From a virus (Duplodnaviria > Caudoviricetes), in the IMG/VR virus record IMGVR_UViG_3300028888_000055: 64,000 bases of DNA. One strand, 5' to 3'. Position numbers and translations under genes: made by a program. Below are positions 6,156 through 59,725 of this stretch, piece after piece (positions within the stretch are counted from its first letter, which is position 1; each line of letters opens with the position of its first letter). Below the pieces are notes generated by a model. That model saw nothing but the letters and a program-made list of their open reading frames with translations. It was not told the origin of the DNA and did not search any database.

Positions 6156-9100
6156 ATGAGTACATGTGTATATAAACTTGGAGGAAGAGTATTTGGTTCA
6201 GAATTGGACTTGGATAACTTCTTATATAATTATCTTGATTCTTTTGATGCGGATGCTATACCTGATCTTGTATTTAGTACACGATCTCCAAAAGCTAACG
6301 TACTTTCAAAAAAATTAGACGATAAAGCAGAGGAGTTAAAGGCTAACGTAGTTAAAGCTGCGAAATTAAGAGCTAGAAGAGACGAATTCGTTAGTGAAGC
6401 AGAAAGCGCATTAATAGCAAATTATTATGGTGCTAATATGGTATTATCTACTGTAGAAATTGCTCCAAATACAAGAATAACTCCAGAATTCATTCGCTCC
6501 AAATTAAAGGCTAACTTATTTAATTAGTGGACTGGACAACCCTCTGCCAACTCAACAGGTATTAGCAAAAATATTGCTGATATTTTAGCAGCAGCGGGTT
6601 ATACAGAAAACGGAAGACAATTAAAAGCTGGAGATATTATTACAGAATAGACATATGCTGGCAATTCTACTAACATAGAGGATATCTTTCCTAAATGTAA
6701 TGATATATTTGAAAATTATGTGTGGCCATATTGGTCAGGTTTAGGAAAAGTAGGTACTGCTATGCACCGTGTGGCAGAAATGTTCTGGTTAGGAGAAAGT
6801 ACTATTTCTATATTAAATGATTCAGTTGTTATAACTGGAGATGATAGTTTTACTGGTGATTTATCCAGAGTTTCTCCTGTTCTTTCTAATGATGCTATAC
6901 ATGAGTTTCTTACATATTTAAATAGTTTAAAAACTGTTTTACAGGCTAGACATGGAAAAAACTGTAAGTTTAGACCTGAGTATCCAGTAGTTGCTAAAAG
7001 CTCTCTCCCAGTAAAAGGAAATCACAAGGCTCATATTATAGGTATTATTGACTTGGTAGTAGAAGACGAATAGGGAATACCTCATATCTATGACTATAAG
7101 ACATCTGATAAGGATATGGACGAGTGGGGCGCAATTAAGAGAAGATCTTATATGGCCCAGTTAGCTTTATATAGACGAATTCTTGAATCATATGGCATAG
7201 ATGTAGAAGGTACTACCCTAGGAATTTTACCTATAAATTTATCATAGTATAATATAACGAGAGATGGGTCACCAAGAGTTAACGGTATAGAATGTCCTAA
7301 AGATGCGAGAGGTCTTCCTTATATTGAAGATCTTTCTAGAGAATAGGCTCTACAACCTTTAGGAGAATTAACTGCAAAAATTAATAAGTTAGTATATGCT
7401 GAAAATCAGCTCGAAGCTTTACCTACAAACTTTATTCGAAATATTGAAACTCATTTCAAAGAATTCTTTCCAAGTTATACCTTTTAGAAAGAATACGATG
7501 ATGCTGTAAAAGCAGGTATAGAAGAAGAAATAAAAGAAAATTTGAATAATGGTAAGTATATGTTCCCAAAGATTCCAGGTGAAAAAGAGCGTATGGAATA
7601 TGATAAGGAAGAAATCTCTTAGCATATGGAAGAATTTTATAAAAAATATGTTACTTAGAATGACATAGCACAAAAGCGTAACATATTTTATATAAAACAG
7701 GCTATTAGGGAACAAGACCCTGCTCGACTTCCAGCAGTATCTTCTATTAACTATGGAGATAAGGGTGAATGGTTTATTCCAATGTTCTCTAGATACTGTA
7801 ATGGTTCATGGGAACCTGTAAATAATAGTGCTCTCGAGAGCTTAAATATATTAGCTTTAAGAAATAAAATTTCTGGGCAAGTTAACTTCTTTATTTTAAG
7901 CGGATATGACTTGAGTCGTAAGGTTAAAATGAAAGAGGGTAATACAGTTCTAGGATAGCACGTTAATGATATTACACCACAACATGCTGGCGTTATCCCA
8001 CTAGAAGCTGATTTAGGAAATATTGAGTTAATGAAAGCTATGGTAGCTATTAATTTGGCATCTAGATCGGTTCTTCGTAAAGGTGATAAGCTCGGCGAAG
8101 TAATGGCGATAAATATTTGGAATTAGCAAGGTAGAACTACCTCAAATAAGCAATTAATGGATAACTTTAATGCTTTATGTGATTACTCTCAAACAACTAT
8201 GCCTAATAATTTCGCAAGTGGTAAAATAGAAGTAGCTTCTGCAACTCAAAAGGTTGCTACTACTATGCTTGAATTAGGATCGTTAGAAAAAGTAGGAGTT
8301 TTGAATCGTATATATTCTAAATATGAAAAGAATTTAGTGGCTTTAGATATTGAATATAATACATTAAATAGACTTCGTAGAGAACTAGAGGATGCTTATC
8401 CAGATTTAGCAGAAGGAGAAGTAGACATTAATACTCCACAAGGAGCAATGTATTCTACTATTATGACTGCTATTTCTGAAATGAATAATGCTTATTATAC
8501 TCAGGAATTAAGGGACAGTTCTTTTGTATAGCTCAATGTTAATACCCCTGAAATGATGAAGTCTTCTAATTTAAGAAGGTTAAGAGCATTAACTAACAAT
8601 GCATTCTAGAGATTACGTGATAGAATGAATAGAGAAGCTGCCGAATGGAGAATTCATTATGATAAATTAATAAAAGCTAAAGGTTATAGTAGAGGTGAAA
8701 AGTGGATTACTGATAATGATTCTCGTCTTTACGAAAATATGATTATTCATAATAAAGAATAGGGTATTCTTAAATTCAAGAATCCTTGGGATAGAACAAC
8801 GGATTTAACTGATGAAGAAAGAGAATTCTTGAAGTGGTATTTGGATAAGTAGGATCAACTAAGATTTGAAGAGGATAGTACAGAAGAAAGTCGCTAGTTA
8901 AGAAGAGCAGATTCAAATAGTCAATATTTTGATGTTCCTTTAATGGAATCTAAAGGACAGGAAAAAATATTGAATGGTAGAACTAAAGGTTTAGTTTCAT
9001 GGTTTAAGCGTACTATACAATGGTGGAGACATCCAATTCAGAATGCTAAACGCCTAGAGGCAAAAGTTTTAACAAATGAAAAAGCCGATGAAGCAAAGAA

Positions 9101-18151: not shown

Positions 18152-20200
18152 TTAATGGACCCAATGATCAGAGACTGAGGCTTCTGCAGGGATAGGCAAA
18201 GATTTGCAATATATTGATGCAGCTTTTTCCATACATTCTTTAAGAATATCTGGAGTTTCTTTTATTTCTTCTTTATAAATTACATTAATTTCATCATGAA
18301 CCAAAGCAGATAATTCAACATCCTTAAAATGATTATTATCTACTATCCAATTAAAAAACATAGTAGCAGCAGTTTTTAAGATTACACTTCCACTTCCCTG
18401 TGTCGGGGAATTCAAAGCATATCTTTCATATTTGCTAGATGCTCTAAAGTGCATAGACACTTCTCGAGCAACAGCATCTCCAGTACCTTTATGGTATTGT
18501 CCGTATTCTTCCCAAAATTCTGGAGTAAAAGATTGCTGTCTAGCTAACCATGCATCGTGGTCCCACCAGTACATTTTATGACCACTTTCTTTACACATTA
18601 ATATATATCCATGCTTCTTTACGAAAGCGGCCCCTTCTTTCTTAAACTTAGCAATTCCAGGGAAACCACTAGCATATGCATTAGCAAAATTCCGTGCTTC
18701 TTCTAATGTACATCCCATCGCTCCCATAATAGCATATTCAGAACCTCCAAATTGTTGGCTAAATTCTATACCTTTTACTGCTTTTCTTAAATGAGGATAT
18801 AATTTCTTTATATCTTTTATAGGGGTGTCTCTTGGTATCTCCTTATATACCATATAAGCACATAGTGAATGCATATCTCCACTACCGTGCAGAAACTCAT
18901 TTAACATGGAAGTCTCATTATATATATCTGCTCCTAATCTACTTTCCAATGCACTATAATCACAGCTTACCCATTTATACCCTTTAGGGGCAGTAAATGA
19001 ACCTCGTGTTGGGGCATCAGCTGGTAATTGCTGCATATTAGGATAAGTACAATCTTTAGGGCTTAAATTTTTATACTTGGCTAAATCATAGTTAGGTTGT
19101 TGACTTCCACAGGACATCCTGCCTGATCTAGCTCCAAGTTGTTTATAATTAGTATGTATTCTGTCGGTTATTGGGTTAATAGCATTAAGGTGACCTTCAC
19201 CAAAGGATGTAATTACTTTAAACGCCTCCTGAAAATTAAAATATAACTTTAGGAATTCATCATTTATTCCTTTTTGAACTTTAAGATGCTTTTCAAGTAC
19301 ACTATCTTTATCTTCTCCAGTCTTTTTGTCTTTTACTTCAGTATTAAATCCTAAATCCTTAGCTATTTTAACAACTTGTTGACTACTTGCCCAATTAACT
19401 GTACATATGGGAGTAGTATCAAATCCATCAAATAGACTACCTTGTAGATTTACTCTAGTATATTTAGATAAAGCAGGATTATTAACAACAAAATCATCAA
19501 GGGCTTTTTTGCTGTCTTCATACTTAAGTCTATCATTCTTCATTTTTTCTTTCCACTTATCTGCATCCAAGTGTATTCCACACCATTCAAGATAAGCTAT
19601 AGCTGGAATAAAGTTACACTCTACTTGAACTGCTTTCTTAAGGTCTTGTTTCTTTACATCCTTTAATTGTGAATTAGCTATATCTCCTAAATATGTGACA
19701 TCTCCTGCCGCATATTTAATAACTTCTTCATCCAATCCTCTCCATATAATCTCACCTCTAACTGTTTTATCAATATCAATATTTAGCCTTCTAGCTGCTA
19801 TTGAACGCAAAGAATAAGATATTACGCTGCTAGGATACCCTAAATGCAGTAGTTGTTCTACAATCATAGTGTCATATACATTTCTAGGTATAATACCATA
19901 ATTATATAAGAACTGTAAATCAAACTTTATATTTTGACCTACTAACTTTTTACTTTCTAGAATATCTTTATACAGTAAAGGAGAAATCGTGGTAGTATCA
20001 ACAACTATTTGATTTTCTCCTTTAATATCTCCAAATTGCATACAAAGCAACTTACAGAGATGTGGATCACGACCTTCGGTTTCAGAATCGTATTGGATGA
20101 AGCTCCAGGATTCCATCATTTTAATGGAATCTTCTGGAGTCATCATCGTGTACGCGTCTGAGTCAAATAGTTCTTTTTGTGTACTTACAAAATATATCAT
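18152..20200 (-). CDS. polA: DNA polymerase family A with 3'-5' exonuclease domain
   Basis: Exo YDSETEG, QNIKFD and YAAGD; SGRMS; PNMQQLP; motif A DYSALESR; motif C VHDEI. Confidence 0.95.
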   Translation of the reverse strand: MIYFVSTQKELFDSDAYTMMTPEDSIKMMESWSFIQYDSETEGRDPHLCKLLCMQFGDIKGENQIVVDTTTISPLLYKDILESKKLVGQNIKFDLQFLYNYGIIPRNVYDTMIVEQLLHLGYPSSVISYSLRSIAARRLNIDIDKTVRGEIIWRGLDEEVIKYAAGDVTYLGDIANSQLKDVKKQDLKKAVQVECNFIPAIAYLEWCGIHLDADKWKEKMKNDRLKYEDSKKALDDFVVNNPALSKYTRVNLQGSLFDGFDTTPICTVNWASSQQVVKIAKDLGFNTEVKDKKTGEDKDSVLEKHLKVQKGINDEFLKLYFNFQEAFKVITSFGEGHLNAINPITDRIHTNYKQLGARSGRMSCGSQQPNYDLAKYKNLSPKDCTYPNMQQLPADAPTRGSFTAPKGYKWVSCDYSALESRLGADIYNETSMLNEFLHGSGDMHSLCAYMVYKEIPRDTPIKDIKKLYPHLRKAVKGIEFSQQFGGSEYAIMGAMGCTLEEARNFANAYASGFPGIAKFKKEGAAFVKKHGYILMCKESGHKMYWWDHDAWLARQQSFTPEFWEEYGQYHKGTGDAVAREVSMHFRASSKYERYALNSPTQGSGSVILKTAATMFFNWIVDNNHFKDVELSALVHDEINVIYKEEIKETPDILKECMEKAASIYCKSLPIPAEASVSDHWVH

Positions 20201-20490
20201 AATTGATATTGTTTTACATATTCATATAAAGAATCTAAATCATAGCAAATCCTATTTCCGTTTTCATCGGTTGCTATATGGTCTTTACCTTCAAATATGT
20301 ACCACATTATCCAATCAATTCCATATTCATTAAAGTGACTAGCTAACAAAGTTTCAAATATTACAAAACCTTCAGTATATAAAGGAGACTCTCCTATTTC
20401 TATATGATGGTTATCCCATAACTTATTTCCTTCGTTTAGTAATACTTCTACACTTTTAATAGCCCTGATAAATAATTCTTTAGTTATCAT
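20197..20490 (-). CDS. Hypothetical phage protein
   Basis: DWIMWYIFE..LDSLYEY, typical of a small phage protein family. Confidence 0.65.
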   Translation of the reverse strand: MITKELFIRAIKSVEVLLNEGNKLWDNHHIEIGESPLYTEGFVIFETLLASHFNEYGIDWIMWYIFEGKDHIATDENGNRICYDLDSLYEYVKQYQL

Positions 20491-20719
20491 ATTCTATGAG
20501 CTCTACATTAAAATTATCTGAGTCTACTTTTGTAAGTATATAGTCACTTATAACTTCTTCTATCGCTTTTATATGTTCTTCTCCTACTGTTACAGGGATA
20601 TCTTCCCTTGCTGAACGAATCATATCGCTAAATAAAGGATCATCCATAAACTTTTCTACGTCAACAAAGAATTCACCAGTAATTTTTGCAACAACTTTCA
20701 TATTAATACCATGTTTCAA
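20480..20719 (-). CDS. Hypothetical protein
   Basis: ORF in operon. Confidence 0.6.
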   Translation of the reverse strand: MKHGINMKVVAKITGEFFVDVEKFMDDPLFSDMIRSAREDIPVTVGEEHIKAIEEVISDYILTKVDSDNFNVELIEYDN

Positions 20720-26824: not shown

Positions 26825-27824
26825 CTTGTATCTTATTTAATTCTACTTCAGCTGCCATTTTAAGTAGTCTAATAAACTCTTGAAAACCTTCTTTTATTTC
26901 AGAGTCATATACTTCATATATGCCAGAATTACATTCTGAAACTGTACTTACTACTAACATATTAGCTTTGAAGCTATTTATATTTGTCAGATTGTGATAT
27001 TTTGCAACATATTCCTTAAGCATAAAAGCATAAAGGCCCATTTGCCTAGCATAATGATACTCTTTGAAACTATGTTTAAAATACTCTAATGGATGTCCAG
27101 AAGTCTTTAAATCATTTAATACTAAAGAACATTTGTCAGTATCAACAGTAAAATTATCAAGTTTTCCTTTTACTCTAAGTATAACAAATTTTCCTGTTTT
27201 AGTATCAGTGGCCATAAAATCTAGAAACAAAGCAGCTTCATTCATTACTTTAGATCCCTTAGGATATAAGAGATTCATAATATTATAATTTAAATGTAAT
27301 GAACTTGTACACATCATACAGGTCTCATAACTACGTGCATCTAGAAATATATTTTCCACATTAAGATATTTAGTTTCTTCTTCATACCTATCTTTAAAAT
27401 AAGGAATACACTGATCGAGTACATTTTGTATACGAGAATCTGTAAGAGAATTAGAATAATAATCTACTTCAATACAAGCAGCTTTTACATCATTATAAGT
27501 AGGAGATTGTTTATTCTTTTTCCATTTCTTATATAATATATCAGCTACAAATCCAAGTTTTGCACTTGGCCGACTGGTAATATCTGATAATCTAAAATCC
27601 TTAGGCTGTAAAATAACTTCATGTACAGCACTTCCTAAAAGTAAACTATTAGAATAATTAGGTTTAAAACCTGCTAAATATTTCTCTACAGATCCTCCTT
27701 GGTCGGGATTTATCAAGCTTAGTTTAGAATTACTAATACAATTAGAAAACTCTTTAGAAAAATAGCGTTCATCACTCATTTCAAGATACTGAACGCTATT
27801 TGGTATATATTCAATTTTTATCAT
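26805..27824 (-). CDS. PD-(D/E)xK exonuclease (RecE/DUF3799-like)
   Basis: SNSKL, LGSAVHE, KGKLDN..DLKTS, YARQMGLY. Confidence 0.85.
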   Translation of the reverse strand: MIKIEYIPNSVQYLEMSDERYFSKEFSNCISNSKLSLINPDQGGSVEKYLAGFKPNYSNSLLLGSAVHEVILQPKDFRLSDITSRPSAKLGFVADILYKKWKKNKQSPTYNDVKAACIEVDYYSNSLTDSRIQNVLDQCIPYFKDRYEEETKYLNVENIFLDARSYETCMMCTSSLHLNYNIMNLLYPKGSKVMNEAALFLDFMATDTKTGKFVILRVKGKLDNFTVDTDKCSLVLNDLKTSGHPLEYFKHSFKEYHYARQMGLYAFMLKEYVAKYHNLTNINSFKANMLVVSTVSECNSGIYEVYDSEIKEGFQEFIRLLKMAAEVELNKIQDGDLDT

Positions 27825-28586: not shown

Positions 28587-29000
28587 TTATTTTTTACTAA
28601 TCAATTCTAGGAAATAATCCAGAGGAATCATAGCAATAGTTCCTTCACTATTATGTCCAGATGTCCCTGTCTTTTTCCAAATAACACAAAACGGTTTGTC
28701 TTTATCTGTACAAGCATCTCGTATTGCAAAATATCTAGGCGTAGAAATAGTATTTTTTGTTTGTATATTACAGGGCAGTTCACCATTTAAATCCACGACA
28801 TCAATCTTATTAGCGTCAGCCATTTTATTTACGGCACGACTAGATTTGCATCCTGAATACCCTATTTGTTTTAATTTATTTACTATTTCAAGTTCAAATT
28901 TATTTCCTTTACGCCTATTGCGTTTACCTATACTTGATTTCTTGATCTTTTCATCAGATAGCTAATCTTTGTTTTGTGCTTTACAGTTTTTCTTTTGCAT
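28587..29000 (-). CDS. Holliday junction resolvase (Hjc-like PD-(D/E)xK), 137 aa with one in-frame TAG at codon 13
   Basis: ATG at 29000: MQKKNCKAQNKD(TAG)LSDEK..RNRRKGNKFELEIVNKLKQIGY..SSR..D..KIDV..NIQTKNT. The track ORF 28587-28823 lacks the conserved KG.xFE N-terminus. Confidence 0.8.
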
Positions 29001-29979
29001 ACTCAATTAATTCAAGAGTCTTTTCTCTACCAAATTTATTATAATAATCCGAAATATCTTTTGCGCCATATTTTCTAGGAATCCAGAAACATTTCACTCC
29101 AAATTTCTTCCTAAATTTATTCATATTCTGGATACCAGCTAAATCATTATCATAAAATATAACGATGTTCTTAAACCTTTTATGCAAGGCTTCAAACTGT
29201 TTTTCAGTTAGAAATAAATTCTCAGAATTAGGTGCTATTGCAGTAATTCCTAAAGAATATAAACAAGCCACATCTTTTAAGGCTTTGGTTACTACTAAAG
29301 TATCTCCGCTAGAAGGTAACTGCTTTGCTCCTTGGAGCATAGTAGCTCGCCAATTAGATAGGAACTTTGGTTCTTTCTTTCTGTGTTTAGGAAGATATAT
29401 TCTCCATAATTCCATTCCTTTGGAATTCTTTCCTCTATAATAACCATATATAGGATGTGATTTGCTAGAAGTGGTAAAGATATTCCCATTTAAAAATACA
29501 GTATTACAGGAGAATATCCTAAATTTCTTTAGGATATCCTCAGTAACACCGAATTGGTTCCACCATTTGAGTTCTTCTGTAGAAAAGTCTTTTATTTCAA
29601 CTTGTATAACAGCTTCTTGAGTTTCCTCAAATCTGTCTTCGCTTACTTTTATGACTTTTCTTGTTCTAGGCCTATCAGTATGTATGAATCCAAAATCATT
29701 TCCTATGATTTTAAGAGCTTCATGATACGAGCAATTGTATTTAAACATCACAACATTTATAAAATTGCCTCGCATATCCGAGCCAAAATCCTTAAATATG
29801 ATATCGCCTTTTTTATTTTTATAAAAAGAACACGTCGGATTTTTGTCATCCCTTAAAGGAGAAACAAATAATCCTTTCCGTACAGGGACTCCCAGGTAGT
29901 AATTAAGATAAGTCTCTTGAGAATACTTACTTAACAAATATTCTTTAGTAATTGTAGGTTCTAATCTAAATATTGCCAT
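28981..29979 (-). CDS. DNA primase (crAss-type)
   Basis: SPLRDDKNPTCSF..FKDFG; TOPRIM VTKALKDV..YDNDLAG..AKDISD. Confidence 0.9.
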   Translation of the reverse strand: MAIFRLEPTITKEYLLSKYSQETYLNYYLGVPVRKGLFVSPLRDDKNPTCSFYKNKKGDIIFKDFGSDMRGNFINVVMFKYNCSYHEALKIIGNDFGFIHTDRPRTRKVIKVSEDRFEETQEAVIQVEIKDFSTEELKWWNQFGVTEDILKKFRIFSCNTVFLNGNIFTTSSKSHPIYGYYRGKNSKGMELWRIYLPKHRKKEPKFLSNWRATMLQGAKQLPSSGDTLVVTKALKDVACLYSLGITAIAPNSENLFLTEKQFEALHKRFKNIVIFYDNDLAGIQNMNKFRKKFGVKCFWIPRKYGAKDISDYYNKFGREKTLELIEYAKEKL

Positions 29980-31974: not shown

Positions 31975-33057
31975 TTATAATTTAAAAGTTGCTTTAGGAG
32001 TATCTGTTGTTTTGATAGTATCTTGTTTTAGTGTCCAACTAGGATTTTTATAAATTTCATAGTCCATAATCTCTTCAGGTTTAGGAAGCTCCTTAAACCA
32101 TCCACACTCTCCATAAAATCCGACATGGTCTATTATATCGGAAGTACCAAATCTTGATTTTAAAAGAATACAAGCCAGATAATTATGTCCTATTTCCTTC
32201 ATATTATATCCTTTATAACTAGCTAATTTAAATTTAAGAGGAGAATGTAGTGCTAATACTACTTGTGAATCTTCATACATAGCAGCTGAATCCTTAAAAT
32301 CAGAAGCGTCGGGCTCTTGTTGCCCCTGCCTTAATCTCTCAGAATTGTTCGCATTTCTATTAAACTGCATAATATGAATTGGACTTATTTTATACTTATT
32401 TCTTAAAGAAACAGAATATGAAGATAATAAGTCCATTTCCTCCTTCTTACTTTTACCTGTACTAGCTCTTACAAGAGACATATGATCGATAATAACAGAA
32501 ATTATTTGATTTTCGTTATTAGGTATATAATGCACAGGAGTAAAAGTACCGAATTTTTCTAAGTCTTCTAACACAGTCTTTTTATACTTCTCAGCGTTTA
32601 GAGTACCACTATGAAATATAATCCTTTCATCTAATAGATTCAAGAACGGAGTACAAGACTTAACTAATTCAAGATGTTCATCAGATAATCTGCAATCATG
32701 TCCTCTGGAGAATAACTCCTTATACGTTATTGAAACACCATATTTTTCAAATATATACATAGAAACCAGTTTAGCATAAATTTGTTCTTGAGTCATCTCC
32801 AAATTAAACATGATAAAATATGGATCTCTAAATGTAGATACTCCATTCATATATTCTTTTAACGGTTTATATATAAAGGAGTATAACATAAAAGTACTTT
32901 TACCAACGCCACTTTGTGCGGCTATCAAATAAGATGTGCCTGGAAGCAGCCCGTCCATATATAATTCCATTTTAGGAAGACCAATAGTTAATCCTATATT
33001 ATTTCCATCTCTTCCTTTATCAATCAATTCATAAAAACGTTCTGTTCCTGTCATCAT
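31975..33057 (-). CDS. DnaB-like SF4 replicative helicase
   Basis: AQSGVGKST, FNLEM, IIDH, QFNR, FKDS, LKSRFG. Confidence 0.9.
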   Translation of the reverse strand: MMTGTERFYELIDKGRDGNNIGLTIGLPKMELYMDGLLPGTSYLIAAQSGVGKSTFMLYSFIYKPLKEYMNGVSTFRDPYFIMFNLEMTQEQIYAKLVSMYIFEKYGVSITYKELFSRGHDCRLSDEHLELVKSCTPFLNLLDERIIFHSGTLNAEKYKKTVLEDLEKFGTFTPVHYIPNNENQIISVIIDHMSLVRASTGKSKKEEMDLLSSYSVSLRNKYKISPIHIMQFNRNANNSERLRQGQQEPDASDFKDSAAMYEDSQVVLALHSPLKFKLASYKGYNMKEIGHNYLACILLKSRFGTSDIIDHVGFYGECGWFKELPKPEEIMDYEIYKNPSWTLKQDTIKTTDTPKATFKL

Positions 33058-33662
33058 ACAGATGTCAAAGTATCAAATGTTATAGTACCATTACCATCTT
33101 TCATTTCAGCGATACTCTCCCACATCTTACTCACTACAAAATCAGCTATATTCATATTAATAAGCCTACAGTTATTTTCCTTGGCCCATTCTACTAGCTC
33201 TAATATTTCACGGTGCTTATCTATATTCCACCCTATACTTTTGCCATAAGCGAAAAAGAATTCATCTTCTGAATTGAATTTCTTTGCAAAATTCTTGAGC
33301 GGAGCTTCAACACCATTAATAACACAGATACTAGGATAAGTTCTCCAAAACTCATAACCAAGTTCATTACTGCATTTCATGTGGCCAGTTAAAAAGTTCT
33401 TAGAAAAAGGAACGGTTTCAGGATCGAATGTTGAGCCTTTATCTGGAACTTTATATGACTTTAATATGACATTTTTGTTTTGCAGCGAAACAAGTATACT
33501 CCTCAGATCACATTTAGATGCTTCTAAATACTTACATAGATATTCAGAATGCCTTAACTCACTATTAGCTAATAAAAGTAATTCTATTATAAATAATTCT
33601 TCTGCATTTAGACCATATCGAGTCATCAGCAGTAGTTTATTATCAAGTGATTTTATTTCCAA
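33054..33662 (-). CDS. Putative replication initiator/helicase-loader-like protein (TTG start)
   Basis: HTH-like N-terminus and EFWRTYP motif; directly upstream of the DnaB-like gene with a stop/start overlap. Confidence 0.6.
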   Translation of the reverse strand: MEIKSLDNKLLLMTRYGLNAEELFIIELLLLANSELRHSEYLCKYLEASKCDLRSILVSLQNKNVILKSYKVPDKGSTFDPETVPFSKNFLTGHMKCSNELGYEFWRTYPSICVINGVEAPLKNFAKKFNSEDEFFFAYGKSIGWNIDKHREILELVEWAKENNCRLINMNIADFVVSKMWESIAEMKDGNGTITFDTLTSV

Positions 33663-33707
33663 TTAAATAGACTGGTTACGTAGTTTCGAGCTATATCTAT
33701 TTAATTG
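33660..33707 (-). promoter_or_regulatory. Hairpin sequestering the TTG start of the 33054-33662 gene
   Basis: Perfect 12-bp inverted repeat CAATTAAATAGA (33660-33671) / TCTATTTAATTG (33696-33707). Confidence 0.65.
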
Positions 33708-33878
33708 CATACAGTTTATATTCCTTTCGGAGAGTACCTATTGCATTTTATAAGGACGAAGTAATTTGCGCTCTAAATCAATTAATTCGTCTTCGAATTT
33801 TTCCATATCATACACGGTGCTGTCTTCATAACGTTTAAACAGCATATGCATGGCAATATATTTTATATACTTAAACAT
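33663..33878 (-). CDS. Leader ORF: 46 aa if TAG stops, 71 aa with read-through ending at a TAA that abuts the next gene's TTG
   Basis: ATG at 33878 (MFKYIKYIAMHMLFKRYEDS..); TAG at 33740-33738; in-frame TAA at 33665-33663. Confidence 0.65.
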
Positions 33879-33890
33879 ATAATTAAATAA

Positions 33891-35141
33891 TTAAAATCTA
33901 AAAATCATTTGTTTAGGTTTAGTATTTATTTTAGGAGTTATACTTTCACCTTCTAATAATAGATGTAAGTTCTCCTCGTCTATAGTAATGTACTTACTAT
34001 TTCCTACACTATTTCGGAACCATTGTTCTTCTACAGTATTCTTAATAACTAAATTGAATATTTCTACAACCTTTCCTTCTTGTTGTCTGATTGCTCGGCC
34101 TATTCGTTGTTTCTTGGTCGTTTTACTACTATTAGTACCTAAAATTATAGCTACTGATATGGAAGGATCATTAAAGCCTTCATTTAACCTCATAATAGAA
34201 TGTACAACTCCACTATCCTGGTTAATGAATTCTTCTAAAGTAATTCTTCCTTTCTTCTTAGAGTCTTTTCCAGAATAAACCTTACCATATTTTAGCTTTT
34301 CAGCCATTGCAATTGTTGCACTAAAAGTGATGCACTTTTTATCTTGTCTATGCTCTAATATTAAATTGGTTAACTCTACTTTCTTAGGATGATTATTTAT
34401 ATATTGCTTCCTTTTCTGCAGGGTCCTAGTAAATCCCATAGCATGTATAAGGATCTGCCTATTTACTTCTTTAAAATTAGTACCATCAGACTTTTGTTTG
34501 GCTAGAGCAGCTCGTGCTTTCCAATCAGTAGCCATTTTCATAGCTACTCCAAAATTGAAGTCAAAAAAAGAGAAATGCTCAAGAAATTCTCGGTTAACCT
34601 TTTCATATTCTTCTATATCATCAGGTTCTATTAGAACCAAATACTCTCTATAATCATTCAACCAATCATTTTTGATGGATTCCTCTATTGTAACTTCATC
34701 AATAACGGGAGCATGTTGTGCTAATAATCTGTCCCTACCATCCAGCCTTTCAAATGTAGCAGTAAGACCTAATATTATCTTATATTCTACATTTTCAAAT
34801 ACTGAATATAAAGTAGGAGCAGCTACTTTTTGTATTTCATCAATTAGCAATAATGCACATTTATATTGATTACGCGATACATCATACATTGTGTGTACTT
34901 CTGCTTTTATATTATTATCTTGTAATTCTTTATCCCATTGTATTTTTATTGCATCACTTGGTACAACAATTATAACTTTCTTATTAGCATTTTTATTCTG
35001 AAATCTTTGAATAGCTTGTAGTCCAATTCTAGTTTTTCCAAATCCTGTAGCAGCTACTATAGTACCGACACACTTACTTTTTACCCAATTATCAACACAT
35101 TCTTTTTGTCTTTTACTTCGAGAAGAATTAGGATCAAACAT
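33891..35141 (-). CDS. SF2 (DEAD/DEAH-like) helicase
   Basis: ATGFGKT, IDEIQ, LGLTAT, LNEGFN, QRIGRAIR. Confidence 0.9.
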   Translation of the reverse strand: MFDPNSSRSKRQKECVDNWVKSKCVGTIVAATGFGKTRIGLQAIQRFQNKNANKKVIIVVPSDAIKIQWDKELQDNNIKAEVHTMYDVSRNQYKCALLLIDEIQKVAAPTLYSVFENVEYKIILGLTATFERLDGRDRLLAQHAPVIDEVTIEESIKNDWLNDYREYLVLIEPDDIEEYEKVNREFLEHFSFFDFNFGVAMKMATDWKARAALAKQKSDGTNFKEVNRQILIHAMGFTRTLQKRKQYINNHPKKVELTNLILEHRQDKKCITFSATIAMAEKLKYGKVYSGKDSKKKGRITLEEFINQDSGVVHSIMRLNEGFNDPSISVAIILGTNSSKTTKKQRIGRAIRQQEGKVVEIFNLVIKNTVEEQWFRNSVGNSKYITIDEENLHLLLEGESITPKINTKPKQMIFRF

Positions 35142-37734: not shown

Positions 37735-38172
37735 TTAAAGTCTGAATTTAGTAATTCCTTTGGATACAGATTTTACTACTGCCCCACGAGCTAACCTATC
37801 AGCCATCTCATTGTATTCAACATTACAATGTCCCTTAACTAAAATAAACTTTACTGAAGAATGCTTAGTAATAGCTTCATCCAATCTCTGCCATAAGTCA
37901 GAATTAGACTTTTCTTTACTCTTCCATCCTTCGTTATAAGTGTTTACTACATAAGCAGAATCACTATATACAGTCACATCACTACTTACTTTAATTGAAT
38001 TTAAAGCTTGTAATACTGCCATCTGTTCCATTCTGTTATTAGTAGTATTCTTATATGATTTTGTAAATTGAGCTACTATTTTACCCCTGTCATTTAATAT
38101 AACAAAACCTATTCCTCCAGTATTTTTCTGAAAGGAATAGGCTCCATCTGTATATATAGTATAGGTACTCAT
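37735..38172 (-). CDS. rnhA: Ribonuclease HI
   Basis: YTDGA, TTNNRME, YSDSAYV, NSDLW, VKGH, NEMADRLA. Confidence 0.95.
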   Translation of the reverse strand: MSTYTIYTDGAYSFQKNTGGIGFVILNDRGKIVAQFTKSYKNTTNNRMEQMAVLQALNSIKVSSDVTVYSDSAYVVNTYNEGWKSKEKSNSDLWQRLDEAITKHSSVKFILVKGHCNVEYNEMADRLARGAVVKSVSKGITKFRL

Positions 38173-38173
38173 A

Positions 38174-38614
38174 TTATTTATCTAAATCTTTAATATGTTC
38201 GGTCTCTATAATAGACAAATTAACAAACTTACTTAAAGAATCAATTAGAGCGTTCTCTTTAGACCTATAATAATCCACTATATCTGTTAATACAGCAGTA
38301 ATATAATCAAAGGCTTTCTTGTCACATAATGACTCTGTAATACGTACTGCTTTTGTATTATTAAAAAGATCTCCCTCTTTAAGTGTTACTTTTGAAGTAA
38401 ATTGTTTTCTAATATATAATACATCAGCTTGATTACGAAATTGTACATTAGAATACTTCTTTTCTAACAATTTCTTTAGATTTTTCGCATCAACATTATC
38501 GATAGTAAACACTATCCATTTTTTGCACACTGTAATCTTGTCACTACCAAAGAATTGTTTATCCAATTGGTGCATTTTAATCCTCGGTAATTCTTCTGGA
38601 TTTTCTTTTAACAT
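38174..38614 (-). CDS. Hypothetical protein
   Basis: ORF in operon. Confidence 0.65.
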   Translation of the reverse strand: MLKENPEELPRIKMHQLDKQFFGSDKITVCKKWIVFTIDNVDAKNLKKLLEKKYSNVQFRNQADVLYIRKQFTSKVTLKEGDLFNNTKAVRITESLCDKKAFDYITAVLTDIVDYYRSKENALIDSLSKFVNLSIIETEHIKDLDK

Positions 38615-52852: not shown

Positions 52853-55800
52853 TCATATCAAATTATCTTCTTTAAGTCTAATAATCATTTCAACGCAAGC
52901 GTCAATTAAATCGCTTTTAGTGATATAAAAATATACAAAATGGTCAATATCATCATACATAACATACCAACCTTTATTGTCAGAAAGTTTGCCTAATACA
53001 AGGTTATATCTATCATCGATACAATGTGGTAATATATCAAGCAATGCAGCAAGTGACCAACAAGGAATATCATCTTCCCCGAATTTATAAGTGTAGACAT
53101 TACTATATTCTGCACTTATACCAATGGCTGCTGTAGGATTATAATAAATGAAGTTCTTACTCCACCACATATCCGCACTCTCAATTGGCAGTATACTTGC
53201 TAACTTCTTGCTTTGTTTTAAGTCTGTATAACTTTTCATATTTCTTAATTTTTATTAGTTTTAAACTCAAAATCTTCGCAAACGTCATTATTTTTGAAAT
53301 AGGATTGCGATGGATAGTTCCACCAGCGGTTCTTACAGTAGTACGTTCCAAGTAGTTCTATAGGACTATTCGCCGACATGCTAACGCCATTTCCATGATC
53401 ATAAGTTCTCACTTTTGCCTTAGACCGCCTAAACCACTTACACTTGGTACATCTTGGAGTTTTCATACCTTAATCTTCAACATAAGGGTTAAACTCTTCT
53501 GTACTTATAGCATAACCAGCAGGAATAAGTCCTCTGAAATCAAACATCTTCTTATTGAGCCAATCAATTTCAGCAAGCGTTATATTGTTTATTTGTCCAA
53601 GATATTCACATTTTGAATACTCTCTTATTTGAGGCGTGTCGTGGATTTTATTTTCAAATGAAAACCAAACAGCAATACTTCCCTCATAAGGAGATTTTTC
53701 CCGAAAAGAAACTTCATTTAATTTAATGAAATTCTTAATGTATGCACAAGATGTACCATATTTTGCTTGTAAACGGACAAACAATAATTCTTTTGCTTCT
53801 TCCTCCGTCATTGATGATAGAGGACGGAGATAGGGTTTAATATAACAAATATCACCATCAAATAGAGGTGTTCCTATACGCCCATGTCCTGTACCAAAAG
53901 GACTGCAATTAACCACAAACTTAATTCCATCCCAACATATATTAACAAGTCTATGAGGTGTACCACGGTCATTAATATACACCTTATATGGTAACCTCCC
54001 GCTGATGTCTTGGAGTAAAAGTTCTTTATCTTTTTCTTCCATAACTTAATATATTATTTAGGATAATACTTAGTACCTTTTGATGTGTATGTGAACGCCC
54101 AAGAGTTCCGAATCTCCTCATCGCGCTTCTTAATCTCGTAGAAGGTGATAGGCGGCAGTCCAAACACTTTACACCACTTGTTGGCCTCATTCAAATTATT
54201 CCACTCTTCTGGTGTCATATCATCTCAGGTTTTGGTGGTAGTGGTGTTTGCCACACATCTTGTTTGTAAACTATTTTCTGCTTGCTGTCAGCCAACGTGT
54301 ACAGTTGGAAGACTGGGCAAGTTATATGGTCTTCACAAGCATCTATGGATGACCATTCTGTACATCTCTCACAGCATTCTTGTAATAACTCTCTTGCTTT
54401 TGTCATATCAATTTTTCAAGTTCCAAAATTTTCTTTATCTTTAATATAATGTGTCATTTTCTCTTCAGGAATGATTATTCTTTTCATATCTCAATCTCCT
54501 TATTAATTTCTTTTTTAAGTTTCTGCTTCATTGTACTACGAGATAAAAAACTACACATATCTTCCCACCAATTCCTCCATCCTTTTTTAGGATGACAATC
54601 AGGTAGATTAAGTCTTACTTTCTTCTCTCTTCCGTATGGTTTCATGCCTCAGTCTCCTTTCTTTCTAATCCACCAATCAAGAATTTTGTTAAGTACCATA
54701 GGAATATCTTTAAATAAATCTACTGCTATGTATATACACATACAATAGAATATGATTTCCCAACCTCCTGTAAGTGTTATTATTGCTAACATAATCATTA
54801 TTATCCATTTGTAGTTTTAATTGCCAATTCAATATCCTCTTTATTCTTGGAATTCTCCTTATAGAACACACACCAACCACCTCTAGGAACAAATGTTACA
54901 CTGATGATGTCTATGTGTGACTTTTTCTCATTAGCCCACCAACATACTTTGCGATGGTCATTAAAAAATTTACACGCTATCATATCATTAATTCTAGTTT
55001 CAATAAATGCCGTATCTTCCTTCCATTGCTTGTCGAAATGCATTTATTAAATCGTCTTCATTTAAATCTCCTGTGGTTTCGCTAACATATATATGAGCAT
55101 AATCTTTCAGCCATTTGCAGGCATTATCAATCATAGTGCGATCTGCCCACTCTGCGCCAGCTATAAAACCAAGCATTGTTATTTGCTCATTAAAGCAATC
55201 CTTTTTTGCTGTTAACCTAATTTCTTCTTTGCGTGTCCTATTTAAGTTTCTTTTTTTCTTATTAAATATATGTTTATCACACCAATCATTGATAGGTTTT
55301 CCCATCGCTAATAAGACATAAACTATTATTATTACAAGAAGAATAATTTTAAGTGTATTCATATCTATTCTTTCATTGCTTTACGGAAATCTTCAAGAGT
55401 TTCCTCTATTTCACAAAAAAGTGGTTCTCCATTAAAGGTTGTGTTTTGTAGTTGTTCTTTTAACCATTCACAAGCCTTATCTATAAACTTATCACGAAGA
55501 TCATTTTCAATCATCTTCCAAAGTTTATCTAGTTGCGGATCTTCATCAATAACTTCTTTAGCCGCATCTTCAATATCTTTATAACGAATATAAGGATTGC
55601 TATCAGCCCATTCTGCACCTCTCAAGAAATGTATATGAGGATCTTTTACACCTTTATCATTATAGAATTTAGCTTGTTCTAATCTTTCTTCTTCACGCGT
55701 CATAAGGCATTAATTCATGTACTGGAACTTCAGCTTCTGTAGTTCCATATCCTATTAAAACAATACTACCACAAGTAGCCTGAATAATATCAGGGTCATT

Positions 55801-59339: not shown

Positions 59340-59363
59340 AATTTTATTTATTTTATTTGTTAG

Positions 59364-59725
59364 TGGAGTCGGAGGGATTCGAACCCTCGTCCGCGAATGT
59401 TACAATATCAACTTTCTACATGTTTATTTCATTCAATAGCTTAGTGGTAACAGCTAAATGAACAACTTCTGTTACCATATATCCTAGGTAAGATTTCATC
59501 ACATTACTAAGGCCCCTTATGTGATATATTGTTGTAACGATGCATTGTAAGTTCTCCAGTCCAACAATAAACTTTTGAACCAATGTCACGATGCTTACGC
59601 AGCAGCGCGATACGAATAATAATTTTCGCCAGTTAAAAGGAAGTGTTTGAAAGTTTAAAGAGTTATTTTCAACCTCTACATGCTTATCAACACCATATAC
59701 AAGCCGTCAAATCCAAGTCGACCCC
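59364..59725 (-). ncRNA. ssrA: tmRNA, tag peptide (A)GENYYSYRAAA
   Basis: 5' GGGGTCGACTTGGATTTGAC; 3' GGACGAGGGTTCGAATCCCTCCGACTCCA with G3:U70; TAACT-GGC resume context; tag ORF 59630-59595 ends in TAA. Confidence 0.95.

Follow-up and report, generated by a model that had tools for sequence, protein, structure and literature searches.

The DNA analysed here is a stretch of 64,000 nucleotides (nt) from a virus of the class Caudoviricetes (Duplodnaviria; IMG/VR record IMGVR_UViG_3300028888_000055), hereinafter referred to as the window, and our subject is a leader RNA of about 100 nt that precedes two replication genes on the minus strand and in which the start codon of the first of these genes is paired within a conserved hairpin. 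The first gene (33054..33662) begins with UUG (TTG 33662-33660) and encodes a protein of 202 amino acids (aa), a putative winged-helix replisome organiser or helicase loader. The TGA of its open reading frame (ORF) shares four bases (ATGA) with the ATG of the next gene, which encodes a DnaB-like helicase (31975..33057; PF03796, E 1.3e-16; phrog_19, E 7e-21) and, judging from the sequence, is positioned for translational coupling to the 202-aa gene. On the other side, the same strand carries a gene for an SNF2/DEAD-type helicase (33891..35141; ResIII and Helicase_C domains, phrog_16) followed by a small ORF (33738..33878) that starts with ATG 33878-33876 and contains 46 sense codons before TAG 33740-33738, its codon 47. 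If this TAG is decoded, the frame continues for 24 more codons (33663..33737), entirely within the leader RNA, to the TAA 33663-33665, which directly abuts the TTG. An earlier note on this DNA had described the small ORF with its TAG, the extension to the TAA-TTG junction, the overlap of the two replication genes and a perfect hairpin of 12 base pairs (bp) at 33660-33707 with the TTG in its stem, and all these features are indeed there. Ribonucleotide reductase and polymerase genes are found near the leader as well.

The leader RNA (33645..33749), as delimited by the covariance model R1 that we built from its homologues, consists of three stems, denoted P0, P1 and P2, and the first codons of the 202-aa gene. 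The 5' arm of P0, AUGCA (33742..33746), has the UAG codon of the small ORF at its 3' edge and, in the minimum-energy fold, pairs with UGUAU (33709-33713). P1 (33722..33731), a stem of 3-4 bp that is identified by covariation and is capped by a GNRA tetraloop (UCC-GAAA-GGA in the window), is followed by a linker, defined by its position in the alignment, that contains a conserved (A/C)UAA(A/G)C box and leads into the 3' arm of P0 (33709..33721 with this arm included). The P2 hairpin (33660..33707) is formed by the 5' arm CAAUUAAAUAGAU (33707-33695) and the 3' arm GUCUAUUUAAUUG (33672-33660), the latter harboring both the UAA and the UUG start. In the window, CAATTAAATAGA pairs with TCTATTTAATTG through 12 perfect Watson-Crick pairs and one U.G pair, the loop comprises 22-24 nt, the energy is -11.7 kcal/mol, and all three letters of the TTG belong to the 3' arm.

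The loci of relatives, designated below by L and a number, were retrieved via the 202-aa protein and not via the RNA. This yielded 88 loci from rumen and human-gut metagenomes with comparable upstream DNA (about 250 nt), among which 52 upstream regions were distinct; the structure statistics rest on 29 distinct leaders from large phages of the gut and rumen, which fall into about nine diverged lineages. (A motif scan of viral contigs also returned the AT-rich palindromes L006/L017, L009, L010, L011/L016 and L021, which were dropped as candidate leader homologues, their downstream ORFs being unrelated.) The approximately 100 nt in front of the gene align well in every lineage with an identity of 49% or more between its 202-aa protein and that of the window, even where the flanking sequences do not, and the downstream proteins in the lineages that keep the hairpin are only 49-66% identical to the window protein. 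RNAalifold predicts P1 and P2 from the leader alignment. Across 18 pairs in the 29 leaders, 95.8% of the cells are paired, compared with 83.8% in shuffles, the covariation score is 0.372 versus 0.150, and none of the 500 shuffles matched any of the pairing measures; compensatory changes, that is, changes on both sides, occur at 11 of the 18 pairs. Slid controls gave 25-54% pairing (maximum, 53.5%).

Both stems contribute to this signal. All four pairs of P1 covary and 99.1% of their cells are paired, with a loop that is invariably GNRA, although the stem itself takes such different forms as UCC-GAAA-GGA, CUGA-GAAA-UCAG, UCU-GAGA-AGA, CUUC-GAGA-GAAG, CUGG-GAAA-CCAG and CCC-GAAA-GGG. P2 is a long, AU-rich hairpin of 13-20 bp, represented in the alignment by 14 pairs (94.8% of the cells paired, 7 pairs changed on both sides), in which the basal strands, CAGUUAAAUAGAU and UUUAUUUAAUUG-GAA, are near-invariant whereas the distal part is variable. 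The UUG is paired with CAA or CAG in 28-29 of the 29 leaders; L063, which diverges most, uses another pairing, UCCGAG/CUUGGA, and this one also covers the UUG. The UAA box of the linker occupies a fixed place in all lineages; the human-gut group and L005 are the only ones in which it doubles as the stop codon of the small ORF. At the position of P0, different complementary arms are found in L003 (AUAUGGC/GCCAUAU), L024 (ACAUAGA/UCUAUGU), L025/26 (L026, GAAAGGG/CCCGUUUC), L028 (GGUAA/UUACC), L005 and the window, so that P0 is a probable closing stem of the leader RNA.

In two positions of P2 the commonest pair is G.U, and the covariance model R1, which includes the 29 leaders, scores the window at 68 bits (E 1.6e-11) on the sense strand, compared with 22.8 bits on the opposite strand; together, these observations assign the fold to the sense RNA. 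With the same model, the element was detected only once in the window and only once in the complete genome of a relative, G001. In a bovine-gut strain that is 98.8% identical to the window, there are 15 differences over 1301 nt and none falls within 33544-33794, which is weak evidence in favor of the element (P about 0.05). The window contains three perfect hairpins of 12 bp (loops of 3-30 nt), compared with 0.6 in dinucleotide shuffles, so that chance statistics alone are only mildly unusual, and it is because of its conservation that we consider the hairpin to be real. The other two perfect 12-bp hairpins of the window are located at 7643-7689 (loop of 23 nt) and 27760-27801 (loop of 18 nt). 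The leader, then, is a conserved structured RNA, with the fold, the strand, the single-copy position and the pairing of the UUG established. No relevant match to Rfam was obtained at E up to 10 for the window and at E up to 1 for five relatives, all hits being at chance level. Likewise, a literature search found no description of the element, and the study of the Zeta group of crAss-like phages (PMC7886860) mentions neither hairpins nor riboswitches nor DnaB.

The start codon concealed in P2 appears to be genuine. Every lineage has the TTG in frame, and the stretch between it and the first ATG, 10-18 codons in length, is open and in frame everywhere, with all insertions and deletions in multiples of three; within the human-gut group, these codons show 12 synonymous versus 9 non-synonymous (conservative) changes. 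A 36%-identical homologue on a contig of 183 kilobases (kb), L068:2492-3109, which is not preceded by the leader RNA, has a probable GTG start two codons further upstream, about 2 nt after the helicase stop. In addition, the AlphaFold model of the 202-aa protein (predicted local distance difference test score, pLDDT, 85.9) includes a confident helix at residues 4-16. Given the conservation of the frame, the multiple-of-three indels, the synonymous pattern, the GTG of L068 and the confident N-terminal helix, we accept UUG as the true start of the 202-aa gene. The suggestion of the earlier note that this start is occluded by a hairpin is supported by the compensatory changes that keep the hairpin across the lineages. 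A TAA in frame directly precedes the TTG in the window clade, L003, L005, the L007 group and the human-gut group; in L063, this position is occupied by AAC.

The identity of the gene product is less certain. Residues 1-99 of the model resemble winged-helix proteins, namely, MarR, the N-terminal domain of DnaD and MotA (Z about 6), and residues 98-183 align with the helicase loader G39P of phage SPP1 (Z 5.4, root-mean-square deviation 2.7 over 66 residues). As with G39P and the DnaD-type loaders, the domains of which it resembles, the 202-aa protein is encoded directly upstream of, and overlapping with, DnaB; unlike those cases, however, there is no sequence-level family match, and the fold matches (Z 5.4-6.2) are within the range of common folds. 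Sequence searches of Pfam, PHROGs and the PDB yielded no matches for either the 202-aa protein or the 46-aa product of the small ORF, a Foldseek search of the 202-aa model against the PDB gave nothing at E up to 0.001, and the closest structural matches are uncharacterised proteins of crAss-like phages in BFVD. To annotate the protein as a replisome organiser or a helicase loader is therefore reasonable but tentative.

What precedes the leader differs from lineage to lineage. In the window, L001, L002/L004 and the 98.8%-identical bovine-gut strain, the small ORF ends with TAG, after which the same frame extends to TAA-TTG. For the human-gut group and L005, the stop of the small ORF is a TAA located between P1 and P2, in a frame other than that of the UUG; L025-27 and L028 have a TAA already before P1, and L036 has a TGA far upstream. 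L036 and a duplicate record of it carry a frameshifting deletion of 4 nt about 100 nt upstream of the leader, the leader itself being unchanged. There is no such small ORF in the L003, L024 and L007 groups, where the SNF2-type helicase (C-terminus ...MLFRF*) stops directly before the element. The TAG arrangement is absent from L063 as well. Thus, the RNA element is kept with or without a small upstream ORF. The 46-codon ORF of the window matches the ORFs of 55-66 aa found elsewhere (MTTERMLEL...PYVIDNAEKSE*) in position and, loosely, in sequence (...L.PY...), and it is probably coding given that, between the window and L001, the codons before the TAG show 6 synonymous versus 3 non-synonymous changes. 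After the TAG, the corresponding numbers are 1 synonymous and 3 non-synonymous (V>T, L>P, R>Y), with the changes in unpaired positions of the RNA, so the read-through extension is not conserved as a protein. The stop codon of the small ORF in the human-gut group and L005 is 11 nt away from the base of P2, such that a terminating ribosome could just reach it, and an ancestral interplay between ribosome and RNA may be reflected in this spacing.

One additional possibility that was considered for the human-gut loci is translational bypassing of the type found in gene 60 of phage T4. In these loci, for example, L031:2401-2506, the small ORF ends with GAA-UAA and the next gene starts with UUG-GAA 57 nt later. 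This match is confined to the human-gut group, L073, L025 and the window being unmatched, and the element is retained in lineages without the small ORF, so bypassing was rejected.

Although new as an RNA motif, the element belongs to a known kind, the leaders that sequester a start codon, and on balance it probably functions as a cis-acting translational operator for the gene of the putative helicase loader and the DnaB gene coupled to it; this proposal is built on comparative sequence data. The basal 3' strand of P2, UUUAUUUAA-UUG-GAA, would hold the start of the 202-aa gene in paired form. In hosts of the Bacteroidota type, initiation does not depend on Shine-Dalgarno pairing and requires an unstructured start region. 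Under these initiation rules, a weak UUG start buried in a hairpin of this length is expected to be poorly translated. The leader would then set or switch the synthesis of the putative replisome organiser, and the ATGA overlap could extend this control to the DnaB-like helicase. Strong sequence conservation of the basal strands of P2, of the GNRA loop and of the junctions suggests specific recognition by a factor acting in trans, and the most plausible candidate for this role would be a phage protein, possibly, the winged-helix 202-aa product itself in an autogenous circuit, as among the replication genes of T4. A small ligand is a less likely effector than a protein. Where the small ORF is present, ribosomes translating it may remodel the fold; in the window clade, such an effect would depend on TAG decoding, with read-through taking ribosomes across the whole fold to the UAA-UUG, and would be an accessory, lineage-specific layer.

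Control of this kind is not without parallel. The replicase genes of the RNA phages MS2 and Q-beta have their start codon in an operator hairpin, the bound or open state of which controls translation, and translation of the upstream region can open the masking structure. The leader described here shares with these operators the enclosure of the start codon of a replication gene in a hairpin. However, the MS2/Q-beta element is an AUG hairpin of about 19 nt that is bound by the coat protein in an RNA genome, whereas the present one comprises three stems in about 100 nt of RNA, contains a UUG, belongs to a double-stranded DNA phage of Bacteroidota and shows no similarity in sequence or at the level of Rfam models. 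In phage T4, structured leaders over the initiation region throttle the translation of replication genes, as is the case for gp32, gp43 and the RegA targets. The T4 operators provide the model for the proposed binding of the 202-aa protein to its own leader; here, the fold and the sequence are unrelated and the host does not depend on Shine-Dalgarno sequences.

Several observations weigh against an operator function or against parts of the evidence for it. The 202-aa gene can do without the leader, as is clear from the L068 homologue. The near-invariance of the P2 strands could equally reflect a DNA-level signal or a processing signal. The 29 leaders include many close relatives, with an effective sequence number of only 4.2, so that the shuffle statistics overstate the independence of the comparisons. 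The folding energy of a 151-nt region of the window is unexceptional when taken alone (z = -1.4). Finally, the columns of P0 are out of register in the MAFFT alignment, so this stem was assessed by duplex energy instead, and the energy beats that of shuffles only in L003, L024 and L026, which is why we grade P0 as probable rather than proven.

Among the other explanations, an unlikely one is that the element is a signal for RNA processing or stability, namely, a site for RNase III or RNase E, or a structure that protects the 3' end of the helicase transcript, which would set the half-life of the RNA or free the start. RNase III acts in this manner in the N leader of phage lambda and at its sites in phage T7. 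A long, AU-rich duplex located between genes is what such a signal would look like, and in the L003, L024 and L007 groups P2 comes directly after the helicase stop. For a simple cleavage site, however, the GNRA hairpin, the conserved junction sequences and the exact pairing of the UUG would be superfluous. Among four public runs, two of them metatranscriptomes, all represented by contigs only, the region is covered by one contig of 12.7 kb from an RNA library, which demonstrates neither transcription nor RNA ends, and no joints were seen in the contigs of these runs.

The earlier note went further than the structure and took the UAG of the small ORF to be a sensor of the genetic-code switch. 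Specifically, in the absence of a suppressor transfer RNA (tRNA) with the anticodon CUA, ribosomes would stop at the UAG, which lies before P1, and leave the UUG paired, whereas suppression would result in read-through, termination at the UAA and re-initiation, so that expression of the loader and DnaB reports on the switch. This explanation can apply to the window clade only and is, in our estimate, distinctly unlikely even there. The window comes from a phage in which TAG is recoded to glutamine and avoided as a terminator: when TAG is read as glutamine, the 81 non-overlapping ORFs of at least 70 aa end with TAA (55) or TGA (26). Apart from the leader ORF, TAG serves as the stop of a single non-nested ORF, 55365-55703 on the minus strand, the product of which would be nearly identical under either code because a TGA follows one codon after the TAG; the statement in the earlier note that TAG is otherwise not used as a stop therefore essentially holds. 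The long genes of the plus strand contain 4-26 in-frame TAGs each, and four large plus-strand ORFs along with several on the minus strand exist only when TAG is a sense codon; searches of the large recoded ORFs against PHROGs gave no matches. No suppressor tRNA gene was found within the 64-kb window, but the complete genome G001 (160,728 bp), the 202-aa protein of which is 95% identical to that of the window, encodes a tRNA with the anticodon CUA (G001:C1:126017-126088, equivalent to L106:1501-1575, plus strand; labelled Pyl by ARAGORN).

In favor of such a switch, the geometry is exactly as the earlier note described it, the arrangement is kept within the clade (the window, L001, L002/L004 and the bovine strain), and the 11-nt spacing in the human-gut group and L005 leaves room for an ancestral role of the ribosome. 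Nevertheless, the comparison with relatives divides the claim: the hairpin is conserved, whereas the TAG arrangement and the frame beyond it are not, the position and frame of the stop being variable, or the small ORF missing altogether, in lineages outside this one clade that keep the RNA. Furthermore, the codons after the TAG evolve like the loops of a non-coding RNA, and an open frame of 24 codons shared with the TTG has a chance of about 0.07 in AT-rich DNA, according to a very rough estimate. Even lineages without read-through have the TAA before the TTG as a component of the conserved P2 strand, which indicates that the conserved entity is an RNA with a hidden UUG and not a UAG sensor. 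Replication genes, moreover, are expected to be expressed early, before or independently of suppression. The earlier note thus identified a real conserved structure and attached the wrong trigger to it; the amber link is at most a recent add-on in one rumen clade, not a conserved design, and our results temper the idea of a conserved connection between amber suppression and replication genes.

The recoding itself is in line with the proposal that stop-codon reassignment in gut phages is a timer for late genes, with the in-frame stops located inside those genes (Borges et al., bioRxiv 10.1101/2021.08.26.457843; PMC7886860). As in the phages for which this was proposed, the window is TAG-recoded and has a relative with a tRNA-CUA gene, and its replication genes are largely TAG-free and its large genes TAG-rich; unmasking of a downstream start by read-through of an upstream ORF, however, is not part of the published timer and is not conserved here. 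Three ORFs in the midst of otherwise TAG-free genes for replication and nucleotide metabolism (20197-20547, 28587-29006 and 37735-38226 (-)) contain 1-3 in-frame TAGs, so the late arm is not the sole place of TAG-bearing genes.

The resemblance of the leader to translational riboswitches, namely, a conserved multi-stem RNA with highly conserved unpaired nucleotides and a start codon sequestered in the last helix, raises the doubtful possibility that P0, P1 and the junctions form an aptamer for a small molecule, with P2 as the expression platform hiding the UUG. The position of the element in front of replication genes and near those for ribonucleotide reductase and polymerase could hint at a ligand related to the nucleotide pool. 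Unlike riboswitches, though, the leader shows no conserved alternative (anti-sequestor) pairing and matches no known class in Rfam, and the putative aptamer is small and AU-rich, with no ligand that could be deduced from it. In a broader and similarly speculative version, to which we would assign little probability, the leader represents an undescribed class of regulatory RNAs of large Zeta-type phages that senses a signal of phage or host origin, be it a protein or a metabolite, and gates translation of the helicase-loading module, and the window clade has additionally wired it to the code switch via the UAG-terminated ORF.

A role at the level of DNA, be it that of an operator with an inverted repeat, of a replication origin or of a promoter, is very improbable: what we see is a strongly conserved AT-rich inverted repeat next to the helicase-loader and DnaB genes, one of which encodes a product with a winged-helix fold, but the G.U majority at two stem positions translates into A.C mismatches on the opposite strand, loops of the GNRA type are a motif of RNA, the covariance model scores low in the antisense direction, neither repeated copies nor iterons are present (the P2 arm sequence is not enriched in the window), and a promoter in this place would start transcripts past the UUG. 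A promoter of the Bacteroides type in particular was rejected, no TTTG or TAnnTTTG motifs being seen on reading the sequence of the region. An intrinsic terminator was rejected as well, inasmuch as the stem is AU-rich and is followed by GGAAAUAAAAUCAC, as opposed to a GC-rich stem with a U tract.

In the guts of humans and ruminants, large crAss-like phages rank among the most abundant viruses. To our knowledge, almost nothing is known of how their replication is controlled. A covarying leader that hides a non-AUG start offers an easily mutated handle on translational control, in phages whose host phylum initiates translation by rules other than those of Escherichia coli, and it is a candidate for a new RNA family in Rfam.

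Placement of the window among the Zeta-type crAss-like phages rests on the sizes of the relatives, many of which are found on contigs of 135-190 kb, on the set of replication genes, and on BFVD matches to crAss-like proteins. The genomes of the Zeta crAss-like group span 145-192 kb (Yutin et al. 2021, PMC7886860), and the relatives fit this size range as well as the replication-gene set and the recoding described for the group. Comparison with the INPHARED phages by blastn gave only one weak match, of 237 nt, in the helicase gene. In public runs, the phage of the window was also located in samples from sheep and bovine guts. Outside the region of the leader, ARAGORN identified a transfer-messenger RNA (tmRNA) gene in the window (59363-59725, minus strand; tag GENYYSYRAAA*), which adjoins a cluster of tRNA genes for Gly, Met, Met and Arg, and a second tmRNA gene, similarly beside a tRNA cluster, in a complete relative (L102:800-1134).

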